A stretch of DNA of 63,428 nt, filler included. It is 5 parts of 5 records of this genome, joined end to end, with 100 filler letters (N's around TTAATTAATTAA, not from the genome) between each part and the next. Parts side by side here need not be neighbours in the genome. Positions count along the whole stretch, not along the records: positions 12,580 to 19,696 come from DRR723986_4936; 4 more parts are not named here. One strand, 5' to 3'. Numbering within the stretch: the stretch's first letter is position 1; each line of letters opens with the position of its first letter. Shown in pieces: positions 1,977-56,432 of this stretch. The notes below the pieces were generated by a model that ran no database searches, was not told the origin of the DNA, and worked only from the letters and a program-made list of their open reading frames with translations. The position numbers were made by a program, and so were the translations under genes.

Positions 1977-2842
1977 TGTTCCGAACCAGATTTGCCCCAT
2001 CGCCGACCGGACCGCTTCATCTGGGACATGCCTTTTCTGCGCTTCTTGCGCATGACATGGCGGCGCAGCAGCAAGGCGAATTCCTGTTGCGGATCGAAGA
2101 TATTGATCAATCCCGCGCCCGGCCCGAATGGGAGGAACAGATCTATGATGATCTGGCTTGGCTGGGTCTCACCTGGCCGGACCCCATAATGAGGCAATCG
2201 GAGCGTTTGCAAATTTACAAAAACACTTTGCAAACCCTATGGGATCGCAAATTGATCTATGCCTGCAGATGCAGCCGCAAGGACATTGCCGCCGCCGCCA
2301 GCGCCCCGCAGGAAGGCGCTGATCCTTTGATCGGGCCAGATGGTGTGGTCTATCCCGGCACGTGCCGCCCCACTGCGATCAAGAACCGCCCAGACGCCCC
2401 ACCAACGGACGCGGCACTGCGCCTTGATATGGCTCGTGCAGTGGCAAGCCATGAGACATTTTGCTTTCAGGAGACCGGCCAAGGGCCGCAAGGCGAACAT
2501 GGGCGGATGACTTTCACCCCAGATCAGATGATTCACGAGATCGGCGATATCGTCCTGGCGCGCCGCGACATGGGCACCTCCTATCACCTTTCCGTCGTGC
2601 TTGATGATGCAGCGCAAAAGATCACCGATGTTGTGCGCGGTCAGGATCTTTTCGAGGCCACCAAGATCCATATCGTGCTGCAAAGCCTGCTGAACTTACC
2701 GCACCCAAGCTATCACCATCATGATCTGATCCGCGACGAGCACGGCAAGCGGCTGGCCAAACGGGATGACGCGCGGGCGATTTCGCTTTATCGTGCCGAA
2801 GGGCGTTCAGCAAAAGAAATTCGCGATATGGTAATACCTTAG
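1976..2842 (+). CDS. gluQ: Glutamyl-Q tRNA(Asp) synthetase
   Basis: RFAPSPTG-LHLGH, LRIEDID, CxC...YPGTC, VVRGQDL and RLAKR, with no anticodon-binding domain (~289 aa). Confidence 0.92.
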   Translation: MFRTRFAPSPTGPLHLGHAFSALLAHDMAAQQQGEFLLRIEDIDQSRARPEWEEQIYDDLAWLGLTWPDPIMRQSERLQIYKNTLQTLWDRKLIYACRCSRKDIAAAASAPQEGADPLIGPDGVVYPGTCRPTAIKNRPDAPPTDAALRLDMARAVASHETFCFQETGQGPQGEHGRMTFTPDQMIHEIGDIVLARRDMGTSYHLSVVLDDAAQKITDVVRGQDLFEATKIHIVLQSLLNLPHPSYHHHDLIRDEHGKRLAKRDDARAISLYRAEGRSAKEIRDMVIP

Positions 2843-2865
2843 AGGGCGATCTTCATGTAGGCAAC

Positions 2866-3228
2866 TCAGGCCTGCATAGGCTTTGACAGCTCAACTTCCG
2901 CCCCATCCCGCACTGCGGTATAGAAGCAGCTCCGCCGTCCGGTGTGACAGGCCGGGCCGGTCTGATGCACCAGAACCAAAATACAATCGCGGTCGCAATC
3001 ATACCGCAGATCGACCAGCTCCTGATGGTGACCACTGGTCGCGCCCTTGACCCAGTATTCCTGCCGCGAACGGCTCCAATACGTGACGTTACCACTGTCC
3101 AGAGTGCGCTGAATGCTTTGGGCGTTCATCCATGCCAGCATCAAAACCTCAAGGCTGTCTGCATCTTGCGCGATAACCGGCAGCAACCCAGCATCGTTGA
3201 ATTTCAAAGTCGTGGGATCAAAGGTCAT
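2866..3228 (-). CDS. hisI: Phosphoribosyl-AMP cyclohydrolase
   Basis: YWSRSRQ, KGATSG, DCDRD and GPACHTGRRSCF. Confidence 0.95.
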   Translation of the reverse strand: MTFDPTTLKFNDAGLLPVIAQDADSLEVLMLAWMNAQSIQRTLDSGNVTYWSRSRQEYWVKGATSGHHQELVDLRYDCDRDCILVLVHQTGPACHTGRRSCFYTAVRDGAEVELSKPMQA

Positions 3229-9925: not shown

Positions 9926-10633
9926 TTATCCGGTGGCCGCAATATCCATCGTTGCCGGCTCCGGGTCGCGCAAGACATAGCCGCGCCCCCAAACCGTTTC
10001 GATGTAATTCTCACCGCCCGTGGCCAAGCTCAGCTTTTTGCGCAGTTTACAGATGAACACATCAATAATCTTCAGCTCTGGCTCATCCATGCCGCCGTAG
10101 AGATGGTTGAGAAACATCTCCTTGGTCAGGGTGGTCCCTTTGCGCAGGGACAACAGTTCGAGCATTTGATATTCTTTACCGGTCAGATGCACCGTGGCGT
10201 CATCCACGCTCACCGTTTTGGCATCCAGATTGACGGCAATCTGCCCGGTTTTGATCACCGATTGGGAATGCCCCTTGGACCGGCGAATAATCGCATGGAT
10301 ACGGGCGACGAGTTCTTCGCGGTGGAAAGGTTTTGTCAGATAATCGTCCGCCCCAAATCCGAAACCTTTGATCTTGCTTTCAGTGTCGTCCGACCCGGAG
10401 AGAATCAGAATGGGTGTCTCAATCCGGCTGAGCCGCAGCTGGCGCAGCACCTCATGGCCGTTCATATCCGGCAAATCGAGATCCAGCAGGATCAGATCAT
10501 AATCATACAGCTTGGCCAGATCGATGCCTTCCTCCCCCAGATCTGTCGCATAGACATTGAGGTTTGCATGGGTCAGCATCAATTCGATGCTTCGCGAGGT
10601 CGTGGGATCATCTTCGACAAGCAGTACGCGCAT
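9926..10633 (-). CDS. ctrA: Cell-cycle master response regulator CtrA
   Basis: MRVLLVEDD...[14 protein letters not shown]...[23 protein letters not shown], in sciP-ctrA-ligA-recG synteny. Confidence 0.96.
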
Positions 10634-10687
10634 TTGGTTCCTCCGCATGGTCATCATGACATTGGACCGGATCGTGAACAAAAAAGG

Positions 10688-11131: not shown

Positions 11132-12274
11132 ATGGCCCTTGATCAGACCCCGCCGCTCAATTCGTTGGGCTTTGCCAAAGCGCCCGCCGACACGCGGGTG
11201 GTTGTTGCCATGTCAGGCGGCGTTGACAGCTCTGTCGTGGCGGCGATGCTGGCCGAAGAAGGCTATGATGTGGTTGGCGTGACCCTGCAGCTTTATGACC
11301 ACGGGGCAGCACTGGCCAAAAAGGGGGCCTGTTGCGCCGGGATCGACATTCACGACGCCCGCCGCGTTGCCGAAGACATGGGCTTTCCACACTACGTGCT
11401 GGACTATGAAAACATCTTTCAGGATGCCGTGATCGACGAATTTGCCGACAGCTACCTTGCTGGAGCGACGCCCGTGCCCTGCATCCGCTGCAACGAGCGG
11501 GTCAAGTTCAAAGACCTGCTGGAAACCGCCAAAGACCTCGAAGCCGACTGCATGGCCACCGGCCACTACATCCAGCGCAAGATGGGCCCGGACGGGCCGG
11601 AGCTGCACAGCGCTGCTGATGCCAGCCGCGATCAAAGCTATTTCCTGTTCTCAACCACCCCAGAACAGCTCGATTTCCTGCGCTTTCCGCTGGGCCACCT
11701 GCCGTCCAAGGACGACACCCGCGCCCTGGCCGCCAAATACGGGCTCAGCGTGGCGATGAAACCGGACAGTCAGGACATCTGCTTTGTCCCCAATGGCGAT
11801 TATGCATCGGTGATCCGCAAACTGCGGCCCGAAGCGGCCGATCCGGGCAATATCGTGGACCAGAACGGCAAGGTGCTGGCCCAGCACGAAGGCGTGATCC
11901 ACTACACGATCGGCCAACGCCGCGGTCTTGGCATCGGCGGTCTGGCCGATCCGCTCTACGTGGTCAAGCTGGACGCAGAGCGCAAGGAAGTGGTGGTCGG
12001 CCCTAAATCCATGCTGGCCACCCGCCGGGTCCCGGTGCGCGAGATCAACTGGCTCGGCGATGCACCGCTGACCTCACAAGAGGAATGGCCCATCGCGGTC
12101 AAGGTTCGCTCAACCCGCCCGCCGCGCGATGCGATCCTGCGCCCGATCTCGGACACCACAGCCGAGGTGGAACTGCTCAGCGCCGAAGAGGGCATCTCCC
12201 CCGGTCAGGCCTGCGTCTTTTACGACCCAAACAGCAGCCGCATCTTCGGCGGCGGCTGGATCCACAAAGGCTAG
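11132..12274 (+). CDS. mnmA: tRNA 2-thiouridylase MnmA
   Basis: [40 protein letters not shown] and PGQACV. Confidence 0.96.
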
Positions 12275-12479: not shown

Positions 12480-12579
12480 NNNNNNNNNNNNNNNNNNNNN
12501 NNNNNNNNNNNNNNNNNNNNNNNTTAATTAATTAANNNNNNNNNNNNNNNNNNNNNNNNNNNNNNNNNNNNNNNNNNNN
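12480..12579. other. Artificial contig spacer
   Basis: 44 N + TTAATTAATTAA (stops in all six frames) + 44 N. Confidence 0.99.
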
Positions 12580-12912
12580 GGGGATTATCAAGGGCGAGAC
12601 AGTGCTGGTTATGTCAACGCCATTGGCCACACCACGCTGCTCGATCCCTCCCAGGTGTTGGTGAACCTCAGTGCACGTGCTGGGGAGTTTCCCTCCGAAG
12701 AAGGAATCGTGTCACCGAGCTTATTTGCCACCAAGATTGGCGGTCCGGCCTTAGCTTTGAACCCACACTGGTCCAACGATCTCGTCACTGCTGCTCTGGC
12801 CACTCGAGGGCTAACGCCTGAGTTTGGTGAGTATCACCACCGGGTTGAGTCTTTGGCGCAGCGTGCTCGAGCAAAGATTGTCGCCCGATTAGCCCAGGGC
12901 TCCAGGAAATAA
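12580..12912 (+). CDS. C-terminal part of a degenerate GatD/CobQ-like type 1 glutamine amidotransferase
   Basis: The frame is open from the contig edge. SAGYVNAIGHT...EEGIVSPSLFATKIGGPALALNPHWSNDL aligns by eye to GFENH.G.T...EG....N..GTYLHGPLL.KNP.LAD.L. Confidence 0.6.
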   Translation, partial: GDYQGRDSAGYVNAIGHTTLLDPSQVLVNLSARAGEFPSEEGIVSPSLFATKIGGPALALNPHWSNDLVTAALATRGLTPEFGEYHHRVESLAQRARAKIVARLAQGSRK

Positions 12913-12915
12913 CTC

Positions 12916-13980
12916 CTAGTCGATAAAGCGGCGCTGAATATGGGCGCCGAGAGCAGCGACGACCTCGTCGCCAATGGTGCCTGCCCAGTTAGCCCAGTCT
13001 TCGGCCAGGGGTGAGCCCGCGTCGGGGTCTCCCCACAGGGTGACCATGTCCCCGGTGGTCGGGATGGTGGTGGGGTCAATATCAATCACGAGGTGGTCCA
13101 CGGCCACCTCGCGAATATCGAGGCGTGTTCCCTTCCACGCTACCCAGCCTGTGTTCGGTGGCAGGGGGAGGACTCCATCGCCATATCCGATGCCTACTCG
13201 GGCGGTGTGACGTTTCTCATCCACCGAAATAATGGGCGCGCGCAGGGTCATGACGGGAGCAAAACCGAGGTCCTTGGCTGAGCGGTCATCAAAGGGGCTA
13301 ATCCCATAGGCGATGATGCCGACCCGGACCAAGTCCAGGCGAGCCTGGGGGAGGTCTGAGGCCGCTGCCGAGGCTGCGATGTGGAGAAGCTCCGGTGTGA
13401 GCGAAGCGGAAGTGGCCGCTTCTACCGCGTGGTGGAACTTTTCTAGTGCCACGAGATCTTCTGCTAACGAAGTGTCCGCCAGATGAGACCAGATACCCAC
13501 TACCGAGATATCTCCGGCTGATTGGGCGGTGACGGCTGCAGCGACAAGCTCTGGCCAGTCCTTGGCTAGCGCACCATTTCGGTGCAATCCGGTGTCAATT
13601 TTCAGATGAACCCGAGTGTTGCCGCCCGGGGCTTCGCGACGTAATTTTTCTATCTGCCACAGAGCAGAAATCCCGAGATCAAGGGACGCCTCGGACGCCT
13701 CGCGGAAATCGTTGTGGGGAGAAAGAAGCCAACACAGCACGGGTGTCCCAGGGGCGACCTGCCGAATCGCCACACCGGTGTCGATATCGAGAACGGCCAG
13801 TGCCTCAGCGCCGGAGGTGATGGCTGCGAGAGCAAGTTCTCGGGCGCCATGGCCGTAGGCGTCAGATTTAATCGCAATCATCAGTTTCGCTTCTCCGGCA
13901 AGTTCACGTTTGGCCAGGGATACATTGGCGCCAAAGGCGCCCAGCGAAATATCGGCAAGCGGGGCGAATTCTAGATCCAT
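12916..13980 (-). CDS. Alanine-racemase-family protein with intact PLP barrel but no catalytic Tyr loop
   Basis: IKSDAYGHG (Lys38), HLKIDTGLHRNG, WSH and DLVRVG..YG are present. The C-domain lacks VSYG and GRxxMD. Confidence 0.85.
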   Translation of the reverse strand: MDLEFAPLADISLGAFGANVSLAKRELAGEAKLMIAIKSDAYGHGARELALAAITSGAEALAVLDIDTGVAIRQVAPGTPVLCWLLSPHNDFREASEASLDLGISALWQIEKLRREAPGGNTRVHLKIDTGLHRNGALAKDWPELVAAAVTAQSAGDISVVGIWSHLADTSLAEDLVALEKFHHAVEAATSASLTPELLHIAASAAASDLPQARLDLVRVGIIAYGISPFDDRSAKDLGFAPVMTLRAPIISVDEKRHTARVGIGYGDGVLPLPPNTGWVAWKGTRLDIREVAVDHLVIDIDPTTIPTTGDMVTLWGDPDAGSPLAEDWANWAGTIGDEVVAALGAHIQRRFID

Positions 13981-14594
13981 GTCCGCACCACCCGAGGGGA
14001 GAGATGAGACAAGAGAGCTCCTTCAGGCCGTGCGGACCATAGGGCCCACTGGCTCACGGTGGGGTCATCGCCCCAGATGATGGCAGGCTCACCCACTGCG
14101 CATTCCAGACCCGGGGCATCAATCACACACTGATCCATCGCAATACGACCAGCAATCGGATACGTCGTGTCACCCACTCTGATGCGAGCGCCGGGGGAGC
14201 CCGTGCGCGGCACCCCATCGGCAAAGCCCGCGCTGATGAGAGCCAGCGTAGTGTCCTCGCCGGTGGCATATTCATATCCGTACGACACGGTGGTCCCAGC
14301 TGGCACGTGCTTGAGCGCCACCACCTCGGCCCTAAAGGTGACGATGGTGTGCTGGTCGCTGAGGAACCACTCGCTCACCAGGGGCATGTCGTCTGGCGCC
14401 GGCGCGAGAGCGTTCGAGTGACCACGCCCGGGGGAGTAGCGGGCATAGCGAAAACCGGCATCGCGGGCGATAGGAGCCACCTGGGCTGCCCCCAGGCCGT
14501 ACGCATCTCCACGGAGATCCAGTGCCTGCTCACTACCTGCGAGGGTTGAGAGGTGTGCACCCAGCGCAGCGGTAGAAATTAGCGCCTGGCGCAT
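13971..14594 (-). CDS. Alanine-racemase-family protein with intact C-domain and collapsed barrel
   Basis: GTTVSYG (Tyr105), GFADGVPR and IAGRIAMDQ are present. LRGDAYGLG has Arg at the PLP-Lys position. 207 aa, overlapping the next gene by 10 nt. Confidence 0.82.
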   Translation of the reverse strand: MRQALISTAALGAHLSTLAGSEQALDLRGDAYGLGAAQVAPIARDAGFRYARYSPGRGHSNALAPAPDDMPLVSEWFLSDQHTIVTFRAEVVALKHVPAGTTVSYGYEYATGEDTTLALISAGFADGVPRTGSPGARIRVGDTTYPIAGRIAMDQCVIDAPGLECAVGEPAIIWGDDPTVSQWALWSARPEGALLSHLSPRVVRTWI

Positions 14595-14607
14595 TGGTGT
14601 AGTGCCT

Positions 14608-14841
14608 TTACGCGGTGATATCGTCTCGGAGCCTGTTGGTCTCATCGTGCCACTTCACGATTTTGTCTCCCAAAGACTCGCGGTGCTTCGTTGCGTGGTG
14701 TCCACAGAACAGCAACTCGCCTGAGGCAAGCGTGACCCGAACATACGCTTGGGCGCCACACGAATCGCACACGTCGAGAGCGCCGATAGCGTTGACCTCG
14801 TCGAGTGACGTGTCTAAGGTCTCCGTTGCAGTGTTCGACAT
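14608..14841 (-). CDS. Small actinobacterial Cys/His protein (DUF7455-like, putative Zn-binding)
   Basis: DVCDSCGAQAYVRV...LLFCGHH, AAGGAG SD, 77 aa, divergent from parE. Confidence 0.75.
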   Translation of the reverse strand: MSNTATETLDTSLDEVNAIGALDVCDSCGAQAYVRVTLASGELLFCGHHATKHRESLGDKIVKWHDETNRLRDDITA

Positions 14842-14984
14842 GCGAATCTCCTTGGGGCTAGTGGAACTTGTGTGACTATTCCACCATGCCCCGGTGACAA
14901 ATATGTCATTGACGCTCCCAGTTTCGCCCACCGCGTATCCCCAACCCACCGCTGACTTGGCCGTGTGCGCGCCAGGGCGGGCCT

Positions 14985-17102
14985 ATGCTCAATCTGGAAT
15001 TAGTGTCCAACGAAAGCGTGATTGTGCCTACAACTGATTATTCAGCTCGTCATTTGACCGTGTTGGAAGGTCTCGAAGCTGTTCGGAAACGCCCCGGTAT
15101 GTATATCGGTTCGACCGATTCCCGCGGGCTAATGCACTGCCTGTGGGAACTTATCGATAACTCTGTTGACGAGACCGTTGCCGGGCACGGTCACGACATT
15201 ACGGTCACTCTTCACCCTGATCACAGCGTGGAAGTATCGGACTCGGGACGTGGTGTTCCCATTGATATCGAGCCGCGCACTGGGCTGACCGGTGTGGAAC
15301 TGGTGTTCACCAGATTGCATGCCGGTGGAAAATTCGGAGCAGGCTCCTACGCCACCTCTGGTGGTCTCCATGGCGTGGGGGCATCGGTGGTGAATGCCTT
15401 GTCCGCTCGCGTGGACGTGGAAGTTGATCGCGAAGGCAAGACCTGGGCCATGTCCTTTCATCGGGGGGAGCCTGGCCTCTTTGCTGACACCGAGGGACCC
15501 TCACCTGAGTCAACCTTTGAGCCCTTTGTGAACAAAAGCGAGCTGCGCGCTTTGGGCTCGGTGAAGAAAGGGCTCACCGGAACTCGGGTTAGATTTTGGC
15601 CAGACCCCCAAATCTTTGGCAAAAAAGCCCGCTTTGCCGCCGCGGAACTCACCGAGCGCGCTCGGCAAACGGCGTTCTTAGTTCCAGGGTTGTCCATTCA
15701 CTTGGTCGACCACACCGGGGAAGAGGTGGTGAACACCACTTTTTCTGCCGCAGGAGGACTCAGTGAATTCCTTGAATTCCTCGCTCCCGACCAGCCCGTT
15801 GTGGGGCCTTGGCACTTCAGTGGTGAAGGGCAGTTCGAGGAAACTGTTCCCGTTTTAGATGCCACCGGCAAGTTGGAGTCGCAAGATGTCGTGAGGGACA
15901 CGCATGTCGACGTGGTGGTCCAGTGGGGCACCGGTTATGACACCGTCGTCAAGAGTTTCGTCAACATTATTCAAACCCCCAAGGGTGGAACTCACCAACA
16001 GGGCTTTGACCAGGGCCTGACGAAAACTTTGCGCGCCGAAATTGAGAAGAACGCCCGCAAGCTCAAAGTCGGTAAAGACAAAGTCGACAAAGACGACATT
16101 TTTGCTGGCATGACAGCAATCGTGGCCGTTCGGGTGCCAGAGCCCCAGTTTGAGGGCCAAACCAAAGAAGTACTCGGAACTCCCGGGGTTAAAGCCATCG
16201 TCAATTCGGTGATTTCGCAGGGCCTTGCCGCCAAATTGAGCTCCACCAAGCGCGAGGATAAAGCCGCGAGTGCGTTGCTCCAGGAAAAAATTGTCGCGGA
16301 AATGAAGACCAGGCTCTCAGCCCGCGCTCTGAAGGAAACGCAACGGCGCAAGACTGCGCTGGAGTCCTCCACGTTGCCCACCAAGTTGGTGGATTGCCGC
16401 AGCAAGGAAACCGATGGATCCGAATTATTCATCGTGGAGGGCGATTCGGCACTGGGCACCGCCAAACTCGCCAGGGATAGTGAATATCAAGCCCTTTTGC
16501 CGATCCGAGGGAAAATTCTCAACACCCAAAAGGCTTCCCTCCAAGACATGTTGGATAACGCCGAATGTGCCGCCATCATTCAGGTGATCGGTGCCGGTTC
16601 GGGTCGCACTTTTGATGTGAGCCAGGCGCGATACGGCAAGGTCATCATCATGTCTGATGCCGATGTCGATGGGGCACACATTCGAACCCTCTTACTCACG
16701 CTGTTTTTCCGATACATGCGTCCTCTCGTGGAAGAGGGCAGGGTCTATGCCGCCGTTCCACCCCTGCACCGTGTCGTGGTGAATACCCGAGGTAAGACTC
16801 CGCCCGAGCTGATATACACCTACTCGGAAGAAGAGCTTGTGAAGGTGTTGGCGGAGCTTGCGAAGGCCGGAAAGACCTATCAGGAGCCCATTCAGCGATA
16901 CAAGGGTCTGGGCGAAATGGATGCGGACCAACTCGCAGAAACGACGATGAATCGCCAGCAGCGCATGCTGCGCCGGGTGCGAGTCACGGATGCTCAAGCA
17001 GCCTCCGATGTCTTCGAACTACTGATGGGCTCCGAAGTGGCGCCCCGCCGTGATTTCATCGTCTCGGGCCCTGGTGTTAACCGCGAACGCATCGACGCTT
17101 AG
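14985..17102 (+). CDS. parE: Type IIA topoisomerase B subunit (topo IV ParE-like)
   Basis: [42 protein letters not shown] and RYKGLGEM. The true start may be GTG at 15018 or 15024. Confidence 0.88.
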
Positions 17103-19549
17103 GAAAGCTTTTCCCCCAGGGACGCCACGGTGTCACTCAGCGGGCTCCCTGAGCCATCACGCTTGGAGTGTTCCTTCGGCAACGAGATGATCTGTCCCTT
17201 GGCCCCCAAAGCCTGGGGATGGGCTCCCACGTAGGCGTGGGTGAGCACGTCTTCGCCGCGCAAGAAACTGTGCGAGCGCACTCCCGAAGTCGCTCGGCCC
17301 TTGGGAGGGAACGTCTCGAGCGCGGAGCGCTTGGCGCGTAGCGTGGCTGTTCCTGGCAGTACTTCGCTAGATCCAGAAATCGTGATGACGTCCGCTGTGC
17401 CTCCGAGTACGGCTGTTGCGCAGATTACGGTGGCGGACTCGGGGAGATTGATTCCTGTCATACCGCCGGCACCGAGCCCCTGGGGGCGAATCAGTGACGC
17501 GCTAAAGGTCAATAACTGCGCTTGATTGGTAATGAGAACAACAGAGGCATCATCCGGCGCTAGGGACGAGCCCACCACGGAATCACCGTCTTTGAGACTC
17601 ACAACGCTCTGATGGGGTTTGTCGCCCAAGCCCTCGAGGGCAACTCGCTTGACCACCCCCTGCGCGGTGCCGATCACGATGGTGGGAGCATCTTCAAGAG
17701 TGAATAACCCCAGAACCTTCGCTTCCCGGGAAGTCAAGCCCAGGTACTCTGTGATGGCAATACCCCGGGCGAGTTGTGGTGTGTCGCTCTCGAGGACTGG
17801 CAGGTCCATGGGTTCAAAAGCGTGGAGGACTCCATCGCTCGTGAGGGCGCCAAGACGTGCCTTGAGCCTGGTGGACACCCCAGCCAGCAGTGCCTCGTGG
17901 GAAGCCGGTTTTGTCGACCCAGAGCTCAGTGGTGAGGGATCGGGCATCCGCGAAATCAGTCCGCTGGCGGTGAGCGCCACAAAACAGGGTGCGTCAGCGA
18001 TTTCTAACTTCTCTGCCGCGAGCGGAGCACGAGCGGTGGGGGCGACTTGGTCGAGCAGGATCGTGCGCCGGGGGGTGCCAAAAGATTCTGCTGCGCTGGC
18101 CATCTCGTCGGAGACTGTGTGGCGCAATAATTCCTCGCTACCGAGTAATTCCGTGAGGTGGGAAATTTCAGCCACCAACGCATCGCGCTCTGACTCGAGC
18201 TCAATGCGAGAAATTTTGGTCAGGCGACGTAGACGCAACTCCAGAATGTAGTCAGTTTGTTCACTAGAGAGGCTAAACACTTCTTGGAGGCGAGTTTTGG
18301 CGACACCGGCGTCATCCGAAGAGCGGATCAGTGCGATCACTTCGTCGATATCCACGATCGCCATCAATAATCCCTCGACGAGATGCAGGCGTTCGCGGCG
18401 TTTGGTGAGGCGATATTGCGAGCGCCTGGTCACCACCAAGAGGCGGTGAGCCACATACACACGCAGAAGATCCACCAGGCCGAGAGTCTGAGGTTGGCCT
18501 TCCACCAGAGCGACGGAATTAATCGAAAAGCTTTCTTCTAACGGGGTTAGTCGATAGAGCTCACCGAGGACTGCTTCGGGGTTAAAGCCGCTCTTGATCG
18601 CGATGACAAGCCGTAAACCGTGATGGCGGTCAGTGAGATCCGTGACATCGCTGATGCCGAGCAGCTTCTTAGCGTTGACCGCGTCTTTGATCTTGTCGAT
18701 CACTCGCTCCGGTCCGACCAGGTAGGGCAGTTCAGTGACCACAAGTCCGGTTTTTCGGGGGCCGATGGATTCCACACTGACGCTCGCGCGCATTTTGAAG
18801 CTTCCGCGACCAGTGGCGTAGGCCTCGGTGATTCCCTCAAGCCCGACGATGGCACCGCCGGTGGGCAGGTCGGGCCCGGGCACAAACCTCATGAGGTCTT
18901 CAAGCGTTGCCTCAGGGTGCTCAATCAGGTGACGGGCCGCAGCCACTACCTCATGGACGTTATGCGGGGCCATGTTGGTGGCCATTCCCACAGCAATCCC
19001 GCTGGCGCCATTGATCAGCAAGTGTGGCAGTGCTGCCGGTAAGACACTGGGTTGCGTGAGCTGATTATCGTAATTGGGGATGAAGTCGACTACGTCCTCA
19101 TCCAGGTTTTCCACCATGGCAATGGCCGCCGGCATGAGCCGCGCCTCGGTGTATCGCGCCGCTGCCGGTCCATCATCCAGAGAGCCAAAGTTCCCATGCC
19201 CGTCGATCATGGGCACACGCATGCTAAACGACTGAGAGAGTCGAACTAGGGCATCGTAGATCGCGCTGTCTCCGTGGGGGTGCAGCTTTCCCATCACGTC
19301 CCCGACTACTCGGGCTGACTTGACGTGGCCCCTTTCCGGAGTGAGACCCATCTGGGACATTTGGTAAATGATCCGGCGCTGCACTGGCTTGAGGCCGTCT
19401 CTGGCATCCGGGAGCGCCCGGGAATAGATCACGGAATAGGCATACTCAAGGAACGACCCCTGCATTTCATCTGTGAGCTCAACATCAACGATGCGTTCGC
19501 TTCCAGAATCGGGCGAGGCGTCCACGGGGGGCGCGGGAGTGGCAGTCAT
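17099..19549 (-). CDS. parC: Type IIA topoisomerase A subunit (topo IV ParC-like)
   Basis: [27 protein letters not shown] (catalytic Tyr) and GIAVGMATN. No GyrA box is visible in the degenerate CTD. Confidence 0.88.
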
Positions 19550-19552
19550 AGG

Positions 19553-19696
19553 ATGGCGCCTATGGTACTCGTCCCGCTGGCAACCACGCTCAGGCTTGCC
19601 GATATCCTCTCGAGTTCGCTCAGCGCACTCCACGGACAGAGCAATCCCTTGGACTTGGGGCCGGTCAAAAGAGCAGCCGTGTTAGTCGTCGATGGA
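19553..19696 (+). CDS. N-terminal fragment of an alkaline-phosphatase/nucleotide-pyrophosphatase-family protein
   Basis: MAPMV...LADILSS...[18 protein letters not shown] ends at the contig edge in the family's first metal-binding VVDG motif. Confidence 0.55.
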
Positions 19697-19796
19697 NNNN
19701 NNNNNNNNNNNNNNNNNNNNNNNNNNNNNNNNNNNNNNNNTTAATTAATTAANNNNNNNNNNNNNNNNNNNNNNNNNNNNNNNNNNNNNNNNNNNN
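19697..19796. other. Artificial contig spacer
   Basis: 44 N + TTAATTAATTAA + 44 N. Confidence 0.99.
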
Positions 19797-49204: not shown

Positions 49205-49304
49205 NNNNNNNNNNNNNNNNNNNNNNNNNNNNNNNNNNNNNNNNNNNNTTAATTAATTAANNNNNNNNNNNNNNNNNNNNNNNNNNNNNNNNNNNNNNNN
49301 NNNN
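49205..49304. other. Artificial contig spacer
   Basis: 44 N + TTAATTAATTAA + 44 N. Confidence 0.99.
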
Positions 49305-56332: not shown

Positions 56333-56432
56333 NNNNNNNNNNNNNNNNNNNNNNNNNNNNNNNNNNNNNNNNNNNNTTAATTAATTAANNNNNNNNNNNN
56401 NNNNNNNNNNNNNNNNNNNNNNNNNNNNNNNN
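56333..56432. other. Artificial contig spacer
   Basis: 44 N + TTAATTAATTAA + 44 N. Confidence 0.99.

Follow-up and report, generated by a model that had tools for sequence, protein, structure and literature searches.

Complementary alanine racemase paralogs in Microbacteriaceae: a predicted heterodimeric racemase with one composite active site

Alanine racemase (Alr), a textbook case of a homodimeric enzyme that has long been studied as a drug target, has a two-base mechanism that is usually probed with engineered mutants. In Alr, the catalytic pair of Lys39 and Tyr265' is drawn from opposite chains, and the Tyr and the GRxxMD segment reach into the site of the partner chain (PMC3485190 and PMC13726279 for the Lys39/Tyr265' pair). 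The subject of this report is a pair of overlapping racemase-like genes on a 63,428-nucleotide stretch of DNA (hereafter the window, meaning the whole stretch that was analyzed), which resembles canonical Alr/DadX (PF01168 plus PF00842; 1vfh, 1xfc, and 1sft) in fold, in its residues for pyridoxal 5'-phosphate (PLP), and in a predicted interface site of Lys and Tyr (PMC3485190, PMC13726279). Unlike the Alr homodimer with its two equal sites, the pair splits the Lys and Tyr sides over two products, with only one site possible. From the sequences, we read the pair as an asymmetric, obligate heterodimeric, PLP-dependent racemase of the Alr fold with one composite active site, at a probability of about 0.78.

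The closest described systems each share part of this pattern. Bsr, Bar, and Lyr (4dza, 4dyj, and 7agz) resemble the long member of the pair in having the Alr fold without the alpha-10 Tyr, a loss that goes with larger or basic substrates; they differ in being homodimers, in carrying Tyr265' in the same chain, and in having Arg-Asn in place of the carbamylated Lys (PMC3485190). Membership of the long protein in the Bsr/Lyr group was rejected, as it keeps K127 (HLKIDTG), has Asp at the Tyr354 position, and is without the Tyr265' loop; in sequence, it is closer to actinobacterial Alr than to Bsr/Bar/Lyr. Paralog heteromers with one degenerate site are represented by ODC with antizyme inhibitor and by the pseudo-heterodimers of class III adenylyl cyclases. 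The prozymes of trypanosomatid AdoMetDC and DHS are likewise duplicates of interface-site enzymes in which the copies are complementary or one is dead (PMC5201418, PMC3663545). These systems have other folds and chemistries (ODC excepted) and are mostly eukaryotic, and a dead prozyme partner activates allosterically; in contrast, the short partner described here is predicted to donate a catalytic base. A 2026 survey of Alr architectures distinguishes three types (canonical, VanT, and MurF'-Alr) and does not mention a heteromer (PMC13726279). Searches of the open-access literature (PMC and bioRxiv) turned up no account of an alanine racemase that is heteromeric, split, or internally duplicated, in keeping with an earlier, sequence-only reading of this DNA, which knew of no such pair. 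The fold and chemistry are those of Alr; what is new, as far as found, is an active site split over paralogous products, its repeated origin, and its fused form.

Division of the catalytic residues between two genes

The gene pair sits on the second of the five contigs that make up the window, a contig of 7.1 kb (12580-19696), and comprises the following features.

12916..13980, minus strand: long subunit gene, 354 aa; full PLP barrel, C-domain without the tyrosine loop
13971..14594, minus strand: short subunit gene, 207 aa; Alr without most of the barrel, C-terminal beta domain complete
13971..13980, minus strand: 10-nt overlap of the short and long genes, ATGGATCTAG; last codons and stop of the short gene, start of the long gene

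The long protein carries the PLP lysine, K38, in IKSDAYGHG (codon 13867-13869), along with the further barrel motifs HLKIDTGLHRNG, WSHLAD, and VRVGIIAYG, and it matches the complete Ala_racemase_N profile in Pfam (PF01168, 1-220 of 220, E 5.3e-46). Its C-domain is incomplete by comparison with Alr: Ala_racemase_C (PF00842) is matched only from profile position 28, and alignment to the nearest solved Alr, 1vfh of Streptomyces lavendulae (E 4.3e-56), leaves a 17-residue gap exactly opposite 'vktvpaghgvsyghhyvte', the catalytic-tyrosine loop. The junction of this deletion lies within PIISVDEKRHTARV (residues 249-262, 13195-13236), and the GRxxMD segment is eroded to REVAVDH (residues 290-296; 13093-13113).

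The short protein presents the reverse picture. It retains the tyrosine loop GTTVSYG with Y105 (codon 14280-14282) and GRIAMDQ (residues 149-155; 14130-14150), and it has Arg at the PLP-lysine position, R28 in LRGDAYGLG (14511-14513). Pfam gives a match to Ala_racemase_C over positions 2-126 of 127 (E 5.1e-28) and none to Ala_racemase_N, and the score against TIGR00492, the NCBIfam alr equivalog, is 82.4 bits, below the cut-off of 168. The start at ATG 14594, which gives 207 aa, was preferred over that of a 224-aa open reading frame (ORF), because the longer ORF overlaps the upstream gene and homologs align from that Met. An AlphaFold2 (AF2) model of the short protein is confident (predicted local distance difference test score [pLDDT] 92.8, predicted template modeling score [pTM] 0.88), and 205 of its 207 residues superpose on the Alr chain 4qhr_A (Z 21.4, root-mean-square deviation [rmsd] 1.9). 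As these residues are matched over chain residues 3-356, the model indicates that the barrel has been mostly excised: by this measure the short protein is Alr minus most of its barrel (some 150 residues lost relative to Alr), with the first beta-alpha-beta unit and the elements adjacent to the C-domain retained. The overlap of 10 nt and the motifs that the sequence-only reading had quoted for both genes are all present, the motifs at the residues and the genes at the coordinates it had given.

Neither chain holds both catalytic residues of an Alr homodimer with two equivalent sites; the PLP-Lys barrel is supplied by the long chain alone and the Tyr/GRxxMD C-domain by the short chain alone. Given the missing residues, neither homodimer would be expected to racemize. 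In the proposed mechanism, to which the conserved residues, the gene linkage, and the fusions described below all point, one long and one short chain would associate 1:1, head-to-tail as in Alr. From the long chain would come the barrel side, with Lys38 and every PLP-binding residue; the short chain would contribute Tyr105 and GRIAMDQ (Met153-Asp154) on a C-domain that faces the long barrel. One complete two-base site would be rebuilt in this way, and the symmetry-related second site would be dismantled, the short chain having no barrel there and the long C-domain no loop. The overlapping stop and start, an arrangement expected for translational coupling, may lead to coupled translation and thereby to equal amounts of both chains.

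This division of residues is conserved far beyond the window. Of 912 candidates similar to it in length, 368 matched the short protein at E <= 0.001, and more than 100 clusters (189-269 aa) align with it at 41-59% identity across nearly the whole query. In an alignment of 107 sequences, composed of this short protein and 106 of the 120 listed matches (14 fragments of 136-150 aa were dropped), the PLP-lysine position is occupied by Arg in 106 and by Gln in one, and Tyr105, VSYG, and AGRIAMDQ are invariant throughout. Among the partners encoded next to short genes, all 55 full-length long proteins keep Lys38, and all 55 are missing a 17-23-residue segment with the Tyr loop, a segment present in each of the eight full-length Alr references in the same alignment. 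GRxxMD is unconserved across the long family, the invariant residues of which are found in the barrel (K38, Y42, H125-L126-K127, D129-G131, R134, H166, S204, R219, and G221) and at D338 E339. Since the reciprocal pattern recurs in dozens of diverged loci, it is not due to chance. Co-occurrence was examined in the source genomes of loci L001 and L002, together with 401 genomes sampled from the same family; among the matches listed for this sample, at least 40 to the short profile are near end-to-end (38 separate genes and two fusions), and 735 weaker matches lie beyond those listed. A canonical 382-aa alr with both catalytic residues coexists in pair-carrying genomes.

A diverged version of the pair was observed in Rhodoluna and other freshwater metagenome-assembled genomes (MAGs; L013, L015, L016, L018, L032, L036, and L039). 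Its short protein, of about 197 aa, has an N-terminal remnant without the lysine motif (consensus LRRELRFS...GLLGLYGSELL), and its gene still precedes a loop-less long gene, the product of which has GFLHGY versus GYGDG elsewhere.

Fusions, linkage, and selection

Two genomes of the 401-genome sample contain one ORF of 666-669 codons, stop to stop, in which the two halves of the design are fused. A search with this fusion yielded 20 full-coverage clusters of 608-640 aa from Gulosibacter and Pseudoclavibacter (P0123-P0143), named 'alanine racemase', and locus L167 (plus L168) also carries it. In a 21-sequence alignment, Lys is invariant in the barrel half, from which the Tyr loop and GRxxMD have been lost, and the reduced half, which includes a reduced barrel remnant ahead of the VSYG/GRIAMDQ part, has Ser at the Lys position (>=90%) with the VSYG Tyr and GRIAMDQ invariant. 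The fusion is thus like the pair in its reciprocal pattern of kept and lost catalytic parts; it differs in its order (barrel half first, reduced half second, opposite to that of the separate genes), in having a barrel half of Alr1 type with TINYE (Tyr354), in having Ser rather than Arg, and in its larger barrel remnant.

The fusion locus, with the order SIS-domain gene, acpS, fusion, tsaE, tsaB, and rimI/tsaD, is the canonical actinobacterial alr position. In both genomes checked, which are drafts and may be incomplete, no Ala_racemase_N match other than the fusion is strong (183 and 191 bits for the fusion, with the next at 56 and 66), and nothing else matches the C-domain-containing profile, so the fusion is likely the only Alr there. 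As the only strong Alr homolog, encoded at the canonical alr locus, an enzyme of this single-site design probably serves as the housekeeping alanine racemase of these organisms, and if the fusion is indeed the sole Alr, the single-site design must be catalytically competent. AF2, run on the fusion with the 21-sequence alignment and no templates, gave a compact two-half body (pLDDT 89.0, pTM 0.90) with disorder limited to the linker (375-383) and the last residues. Residues 1-366/370 superpose on actinobacterial Alr chains (Z 28-29.5, rmsd 2.0-2.3), and residues 1-370 fill the list of structural matches.

These fusions bear on an alternative in which the long protein is a stand-alone PLP enzyme needing no second base (a one-base or water-assisted racemase, or an enzyme of elimination or aldolase type) and the short protein either plays only an accessory part, structural or regulatory, or acts elsewhere. 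Other fold-type III enzymes function without an equivalent of Tyr265', and the long protein retains all barrel and PLP residues and passes the alr equivalog cut-off alone. Such an enzyme would nevertheless leave unexplained why all 107 short proteins keep Tyr, VSYG, and GRIAMDQ without exception, why exactly those residues are lost from 55 of 55 long ones, and why the same split occurs in fused form as the sole strong Alr homolog of two genomes; we regard this alternative as unlikely.

Linkage of the two genes was followed through loci with the short gene gathered from public genomes and metagenomes, which gave 70 short-type ORFs after removal of duplicates. A long-type gene lies directly downstream on the same strand in every one of the 61 classifiable distinct loci with more than 165 nt after the short gene. 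The other nine ORFs comprise five followed by 165 nt of DNA or less and four cut by a contig start, which may represent terminal parts of normal alr genes. At each of the 61 loci, the long gene has an in-frame start that overlaps the short gene's stop, the overlap measuring 4 nt at 40 loci, 10 nt at 18, 13 nt at two, and 8 nt at one. Of the long partners, 55 are full length, five run off the end of a contig, and one is split. The independent occurrence that the sequence-only reading had named as counting against a heterodimer was therefore not what the loci show. Sequences 95-99% identical to the stretch are present in metagenomes from seawater, estuary, and sediment sampled in several studies, as well as in metatranscriptome libraries. 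Contigs from the RNA libraries extend over most of both genes, connect the short gene to the long one in three of four runs (X15, X16, and X17) from two studies, and span the 14594-14610 gap between the short gene and its upstream neighbor, a DUF7455 gene, in X14, X15, and X17.

The same linkage speaks to a second alternative, in which the short protein is not a tyrosine donor but a pseudoenzyme with a regulatory role like that of antizyme inhibitor or a prozyme, binding the long protein or the cell's canonical Alr and adjusting or blocking its activity. A suitable target is at hand in the canonical 382-aa Alr of the same genomes, and dead paralogs that regulate active ones are known from the trypanosomatid AdoMetDC and DHS prozymes (PMC5201418, PMC3663545). 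A mere binder, however, would have no need of an invariant catalytic Tyr and GRIAMDQ, and the stop/start overlap at 61 of 61 loci marks the long protein, itself without the Tyr, as the partner; regulation of this kind seems distinctly improbable.

Purifying selection acts on both genes. The ratio of nonsynonymous to synonymous substitution rates (dN/dS), calculated by the Nei-Gojobori method on multiple alignments for six locus pairs with dS of 0.05-0.5, ranges from 0.10 to 0.28 in the long gene and from 0.15 to 0.30 in the short gene. These unsaturated pairs, with values well below 1, do not show the neutral evolution that the sequence-only reading would have counted against itself, and its view that reciprocal losses with intact frames signify something other than decay is borne out by a pattern conserved in 107 short and 55 long proteins. 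It is hardly credible that the pair represents two pseudogenes left by a decaying tandem duplication, or that it was produced by faulty assembly or gene calling: both genes do carry lesions that would inactivate a homodimer, and the metagenomic contigs are short, yet the frames are intact, both genes are conserved to 35-45% identity over more than 60 loci from different assemblies, the two are paralogous rather than halves of one frameshifted gene, and decay is contradicted by the dN/dS values and by the confident AF2 fold of the short protein. A single frameshifted gene was also considered as such and rejected, as the products are paralogous over the C-domain and are not consecutive parts.

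Several points weigh against an obligate heterodimer. The long protein passes the TIGR00492 cut-off alone with 184.2 bits, so sequence models do not flag a defect. All loci were collected via the short protein, so the pairing is counted from the short gene only, and at one of them (L138; G311:C107, minus strand) the short gene is intact and the long gene is split over two frames (ORFs 1862-2741 and 2508-3174), through either a sequencing (frameshift) error or real loss. Among the more diverged, high-GC pairs listed, crude dN/dS climbs to 0.3-0.7 in the long gene and, in some pairs, to as much as about 0.9 in the short gene, at distances where dS is unreliable. The RNA contigs that cross the junction are compatible with a single transcript, which is a weak hint, and carried-over DNA could also account for them; gaps in their coverage carry no information. 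The AF2 confidence for the fusion may partly echo solved Alr homodimers in the training data. Finally, the heterodimer itself, the access of Tyr105 to the Lys38-PLP site, and racemization as the reaction catalyzed are what we infer from the sequences.

Origin of the split

Larger Microbacteriaceae genomes carry two full-length alr paralogs in tandem (L171-L176; G085, G231, G041, G166, G204, and G185), both of which keep the Lys and the Tyr loop. Like the pair, these tandem alr1-alr2 loci have an upstream paralog followed by an Alr2-like gene, with Asp at the Tyr354 position in L171 and L176. They differ in that both genes are full length and lie beside tsaE (seen in L176, where the ORF of the second paralog runs into TsaE-like sequence), whereas the pair lies between DUF7455 and GatD/MurT-like genes. 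In the two Alr2 sequences inspected (L171 and L176), the downstream paralog shares 'TIGDE' with the long subunit, as opposed to 'TI(N/A)YE' in canonical Alr.

In a quick maximum-likelihood tree (67 sequences, 355 columns), the long family forms one clade (Shimodaira-Hasegawa-like approximate likelihood ratio test support of 99) within a clade of Alr2 plus long sequences (100), and the fusion barrel halves make up a separate clade (100) that groups with Alr1-type/canonical Microbacteriaceae Alr (91). With the long subunit in the Alr2 clade and the fusion barrel with Alr1, the same architecture probably arose twice, and a twofold loss of the tyrosine loop is the most likely course of events on these trees. 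A tree of the C-domain alone, obtained by a quick search over 131 columns with an outgroup that is not monophyletic, places 24 of 26 short subunits with Alr1-type C-domains and two elsewhere, and the reduced half of the fusions with Alr2-type C-domains (supports 82-94). Inspected by eye, the short family has a W..W motif like that of Alr2. The subfunctionalization proposed in the sequence-only reading needs qualifying, as the first tree indicates that the architecture probably arose twice.

A bolder scenario, which we put forward tentatively and consider rather doubtful, is that Microbacteriaceae converted a tandem alr1-alr2 into single-site racemases at least twice, with opposite polarity. 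Gulosibacter and Pseudoclavibacter would have kept the Alr1-type barrel, fused to a reduced half, as their only alanine racemase, and the Pontimonas/aquatic lineage would have kept the Alr2-type barrel with a separate reduced subunit; this second enzyme, with its invariant Asp at the Tyr354 gate and its gene position next to MurT/GatD-like cell-wall genes, would be the PLP-dependent racemase behind the D-diamino acid of B-type peptidoglycan.

Gene neighborhood, candidate substrates, and significance

Beyond the pair, the window contains the following features; the spacers, each N44-TTAATTAATTAA-N44, join the five contigs of the 63-kb stretch.

14608..14949, minus strand: small DUF7455 gene (Pfam PF24254, E 2.4e-22), upstream of and co-oriented with the pair
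12580..12912, plus strand: convergent gene, 3' end only (cut by the contig end), context of the pair
12480-12579, 19697-19796, 49205-49304, and 56333-56432: N spacers between contigs

The minus-strand order on the second contig is DUF7455 gene, 207-aa gene, and 354-aa gene, and beyond the DUF7455 gene lie topoisomerase IV-like ParE and ParC genes. The DUF7455 gene, which also neighbors the pair in locus L066, is conserved context outside the enzyme and may share a transcript with the pair. Its protein has two Cys/His pairs (CDSC...CGHH) and is kept beside the pair and ParE. For the convergent fragment, Pfam gives no match; compared by eye, the fragment matches the C-terminus of a 243-aa ORF of locus L002, so it would correspond to a 243-aa CobB/CobQ-type (GatD-like) glutamine amidotransferase, next to which a MurT-like Mur ligase is encoded in related loci. 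Pfam identifies GATase_3 and Mur_ligase_M/MurT_C neighbors at loci L058, L069, and L080. The GatD-like amidotransferase and MurT-like Mur ligase genes are convergent to the pair and followed by a sigma-70 gene (L002:7685-9684; L058:5675-7746; L069:5615-7611; L080:5778-7786), and the order ParC, ParE, DUF7455, short, long, GatD, MurT, and sigma-70 is shared by several diverged loci. In a metagenomic locus (L115:6428-8035), the pair adjoins a 'sugar-transfer associated ATP-grasp' gene, and the ParE and GatD/MurT neighbors are absent.

The closest named record to the short protein is a Pontimonas sp. MAG (99% identity over the protein), which bears out the placement of the host in Microbacteriaceae by the sequence-only reading; the next named relative is a marine Microbacteriaceae MAG (55%). 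The record as a whole may mix organisms, as the first contig looks alphaproteobacterial and the second actinobacterial. Among the ORF translations of the first contig (1-12479), we take one (9926-10681, minus strand) for a CtrA-like response regulator and another (11132-12274) for an MnmA-like protein.

With regard to the substrate, the Tyr265'/Tyr354 pair sets alanine specificity in Alr, and the Tyr354 position is occupied by Thr or Ala in lysine-preferring or broad-spectrum racemases and by Asn in the VanT serine racemase (PMC3485190, PMC13726279). In the long subunit, this position is held by Asp338 (12967-12969), which aligns with the Tyr of 'tiayeiv' in 1vfh, and Asp rather than Tyr is invariant there across the long family. 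Because a canonical alr coexists in the same genomes and the Asp is invariant, a substrate other or broader than alanine appears somewhat likelier than alanine itself. A possible though speculative candidate is the D-diamino acid of B-type peptidoglycan, in which the cross-bridge is carried on the alpha-carboxyl of D-Glu, and the convergent GatD-like and MurT-like genes flank the pair in relatives of this locus. Rhodoluna lacicola, a relative, has peptidoglycan of type B2-beta with a D-Ala-D-Dab peptide (Dab, 2,4-diaminobutyric acid; PMC4156110); elsewhere, the diamino acid may be D-ornithine or D-lysine. The open-access literature (PMC and bioRxiv) yielded no racemase for the D-diamino acids of B-type peptidoglycan, and the relevant portions of a 2021 paper name just two Dab racemases, namely PddB, which is PLP-independent and belongs to secondary metabolism, and an arginine racemase of broad specificity (PMC8225329).

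If the heterodimer reading holds, the pair would provide a clean bacterial case of duplicates that have divided the catalytic parts of an interface site, with one partner reduced to about half size. Nature appears to have run the complementation experiment itself, with two coupled genes in one lineage and a fusion in another. Annotation is affected as well: the long protein passes the alr cut-off, the fusions are named 'alanine racemase', and the short proteins are variously called 'alanine racemase', 'hypothetical', or 'C-terminal domain-containing protein', names that hide that the products probably work only together. The pair and its full-length Alr2 relatives are, finally, candidates for the D-diamino-acid racemase of B-type peptidoglycan.

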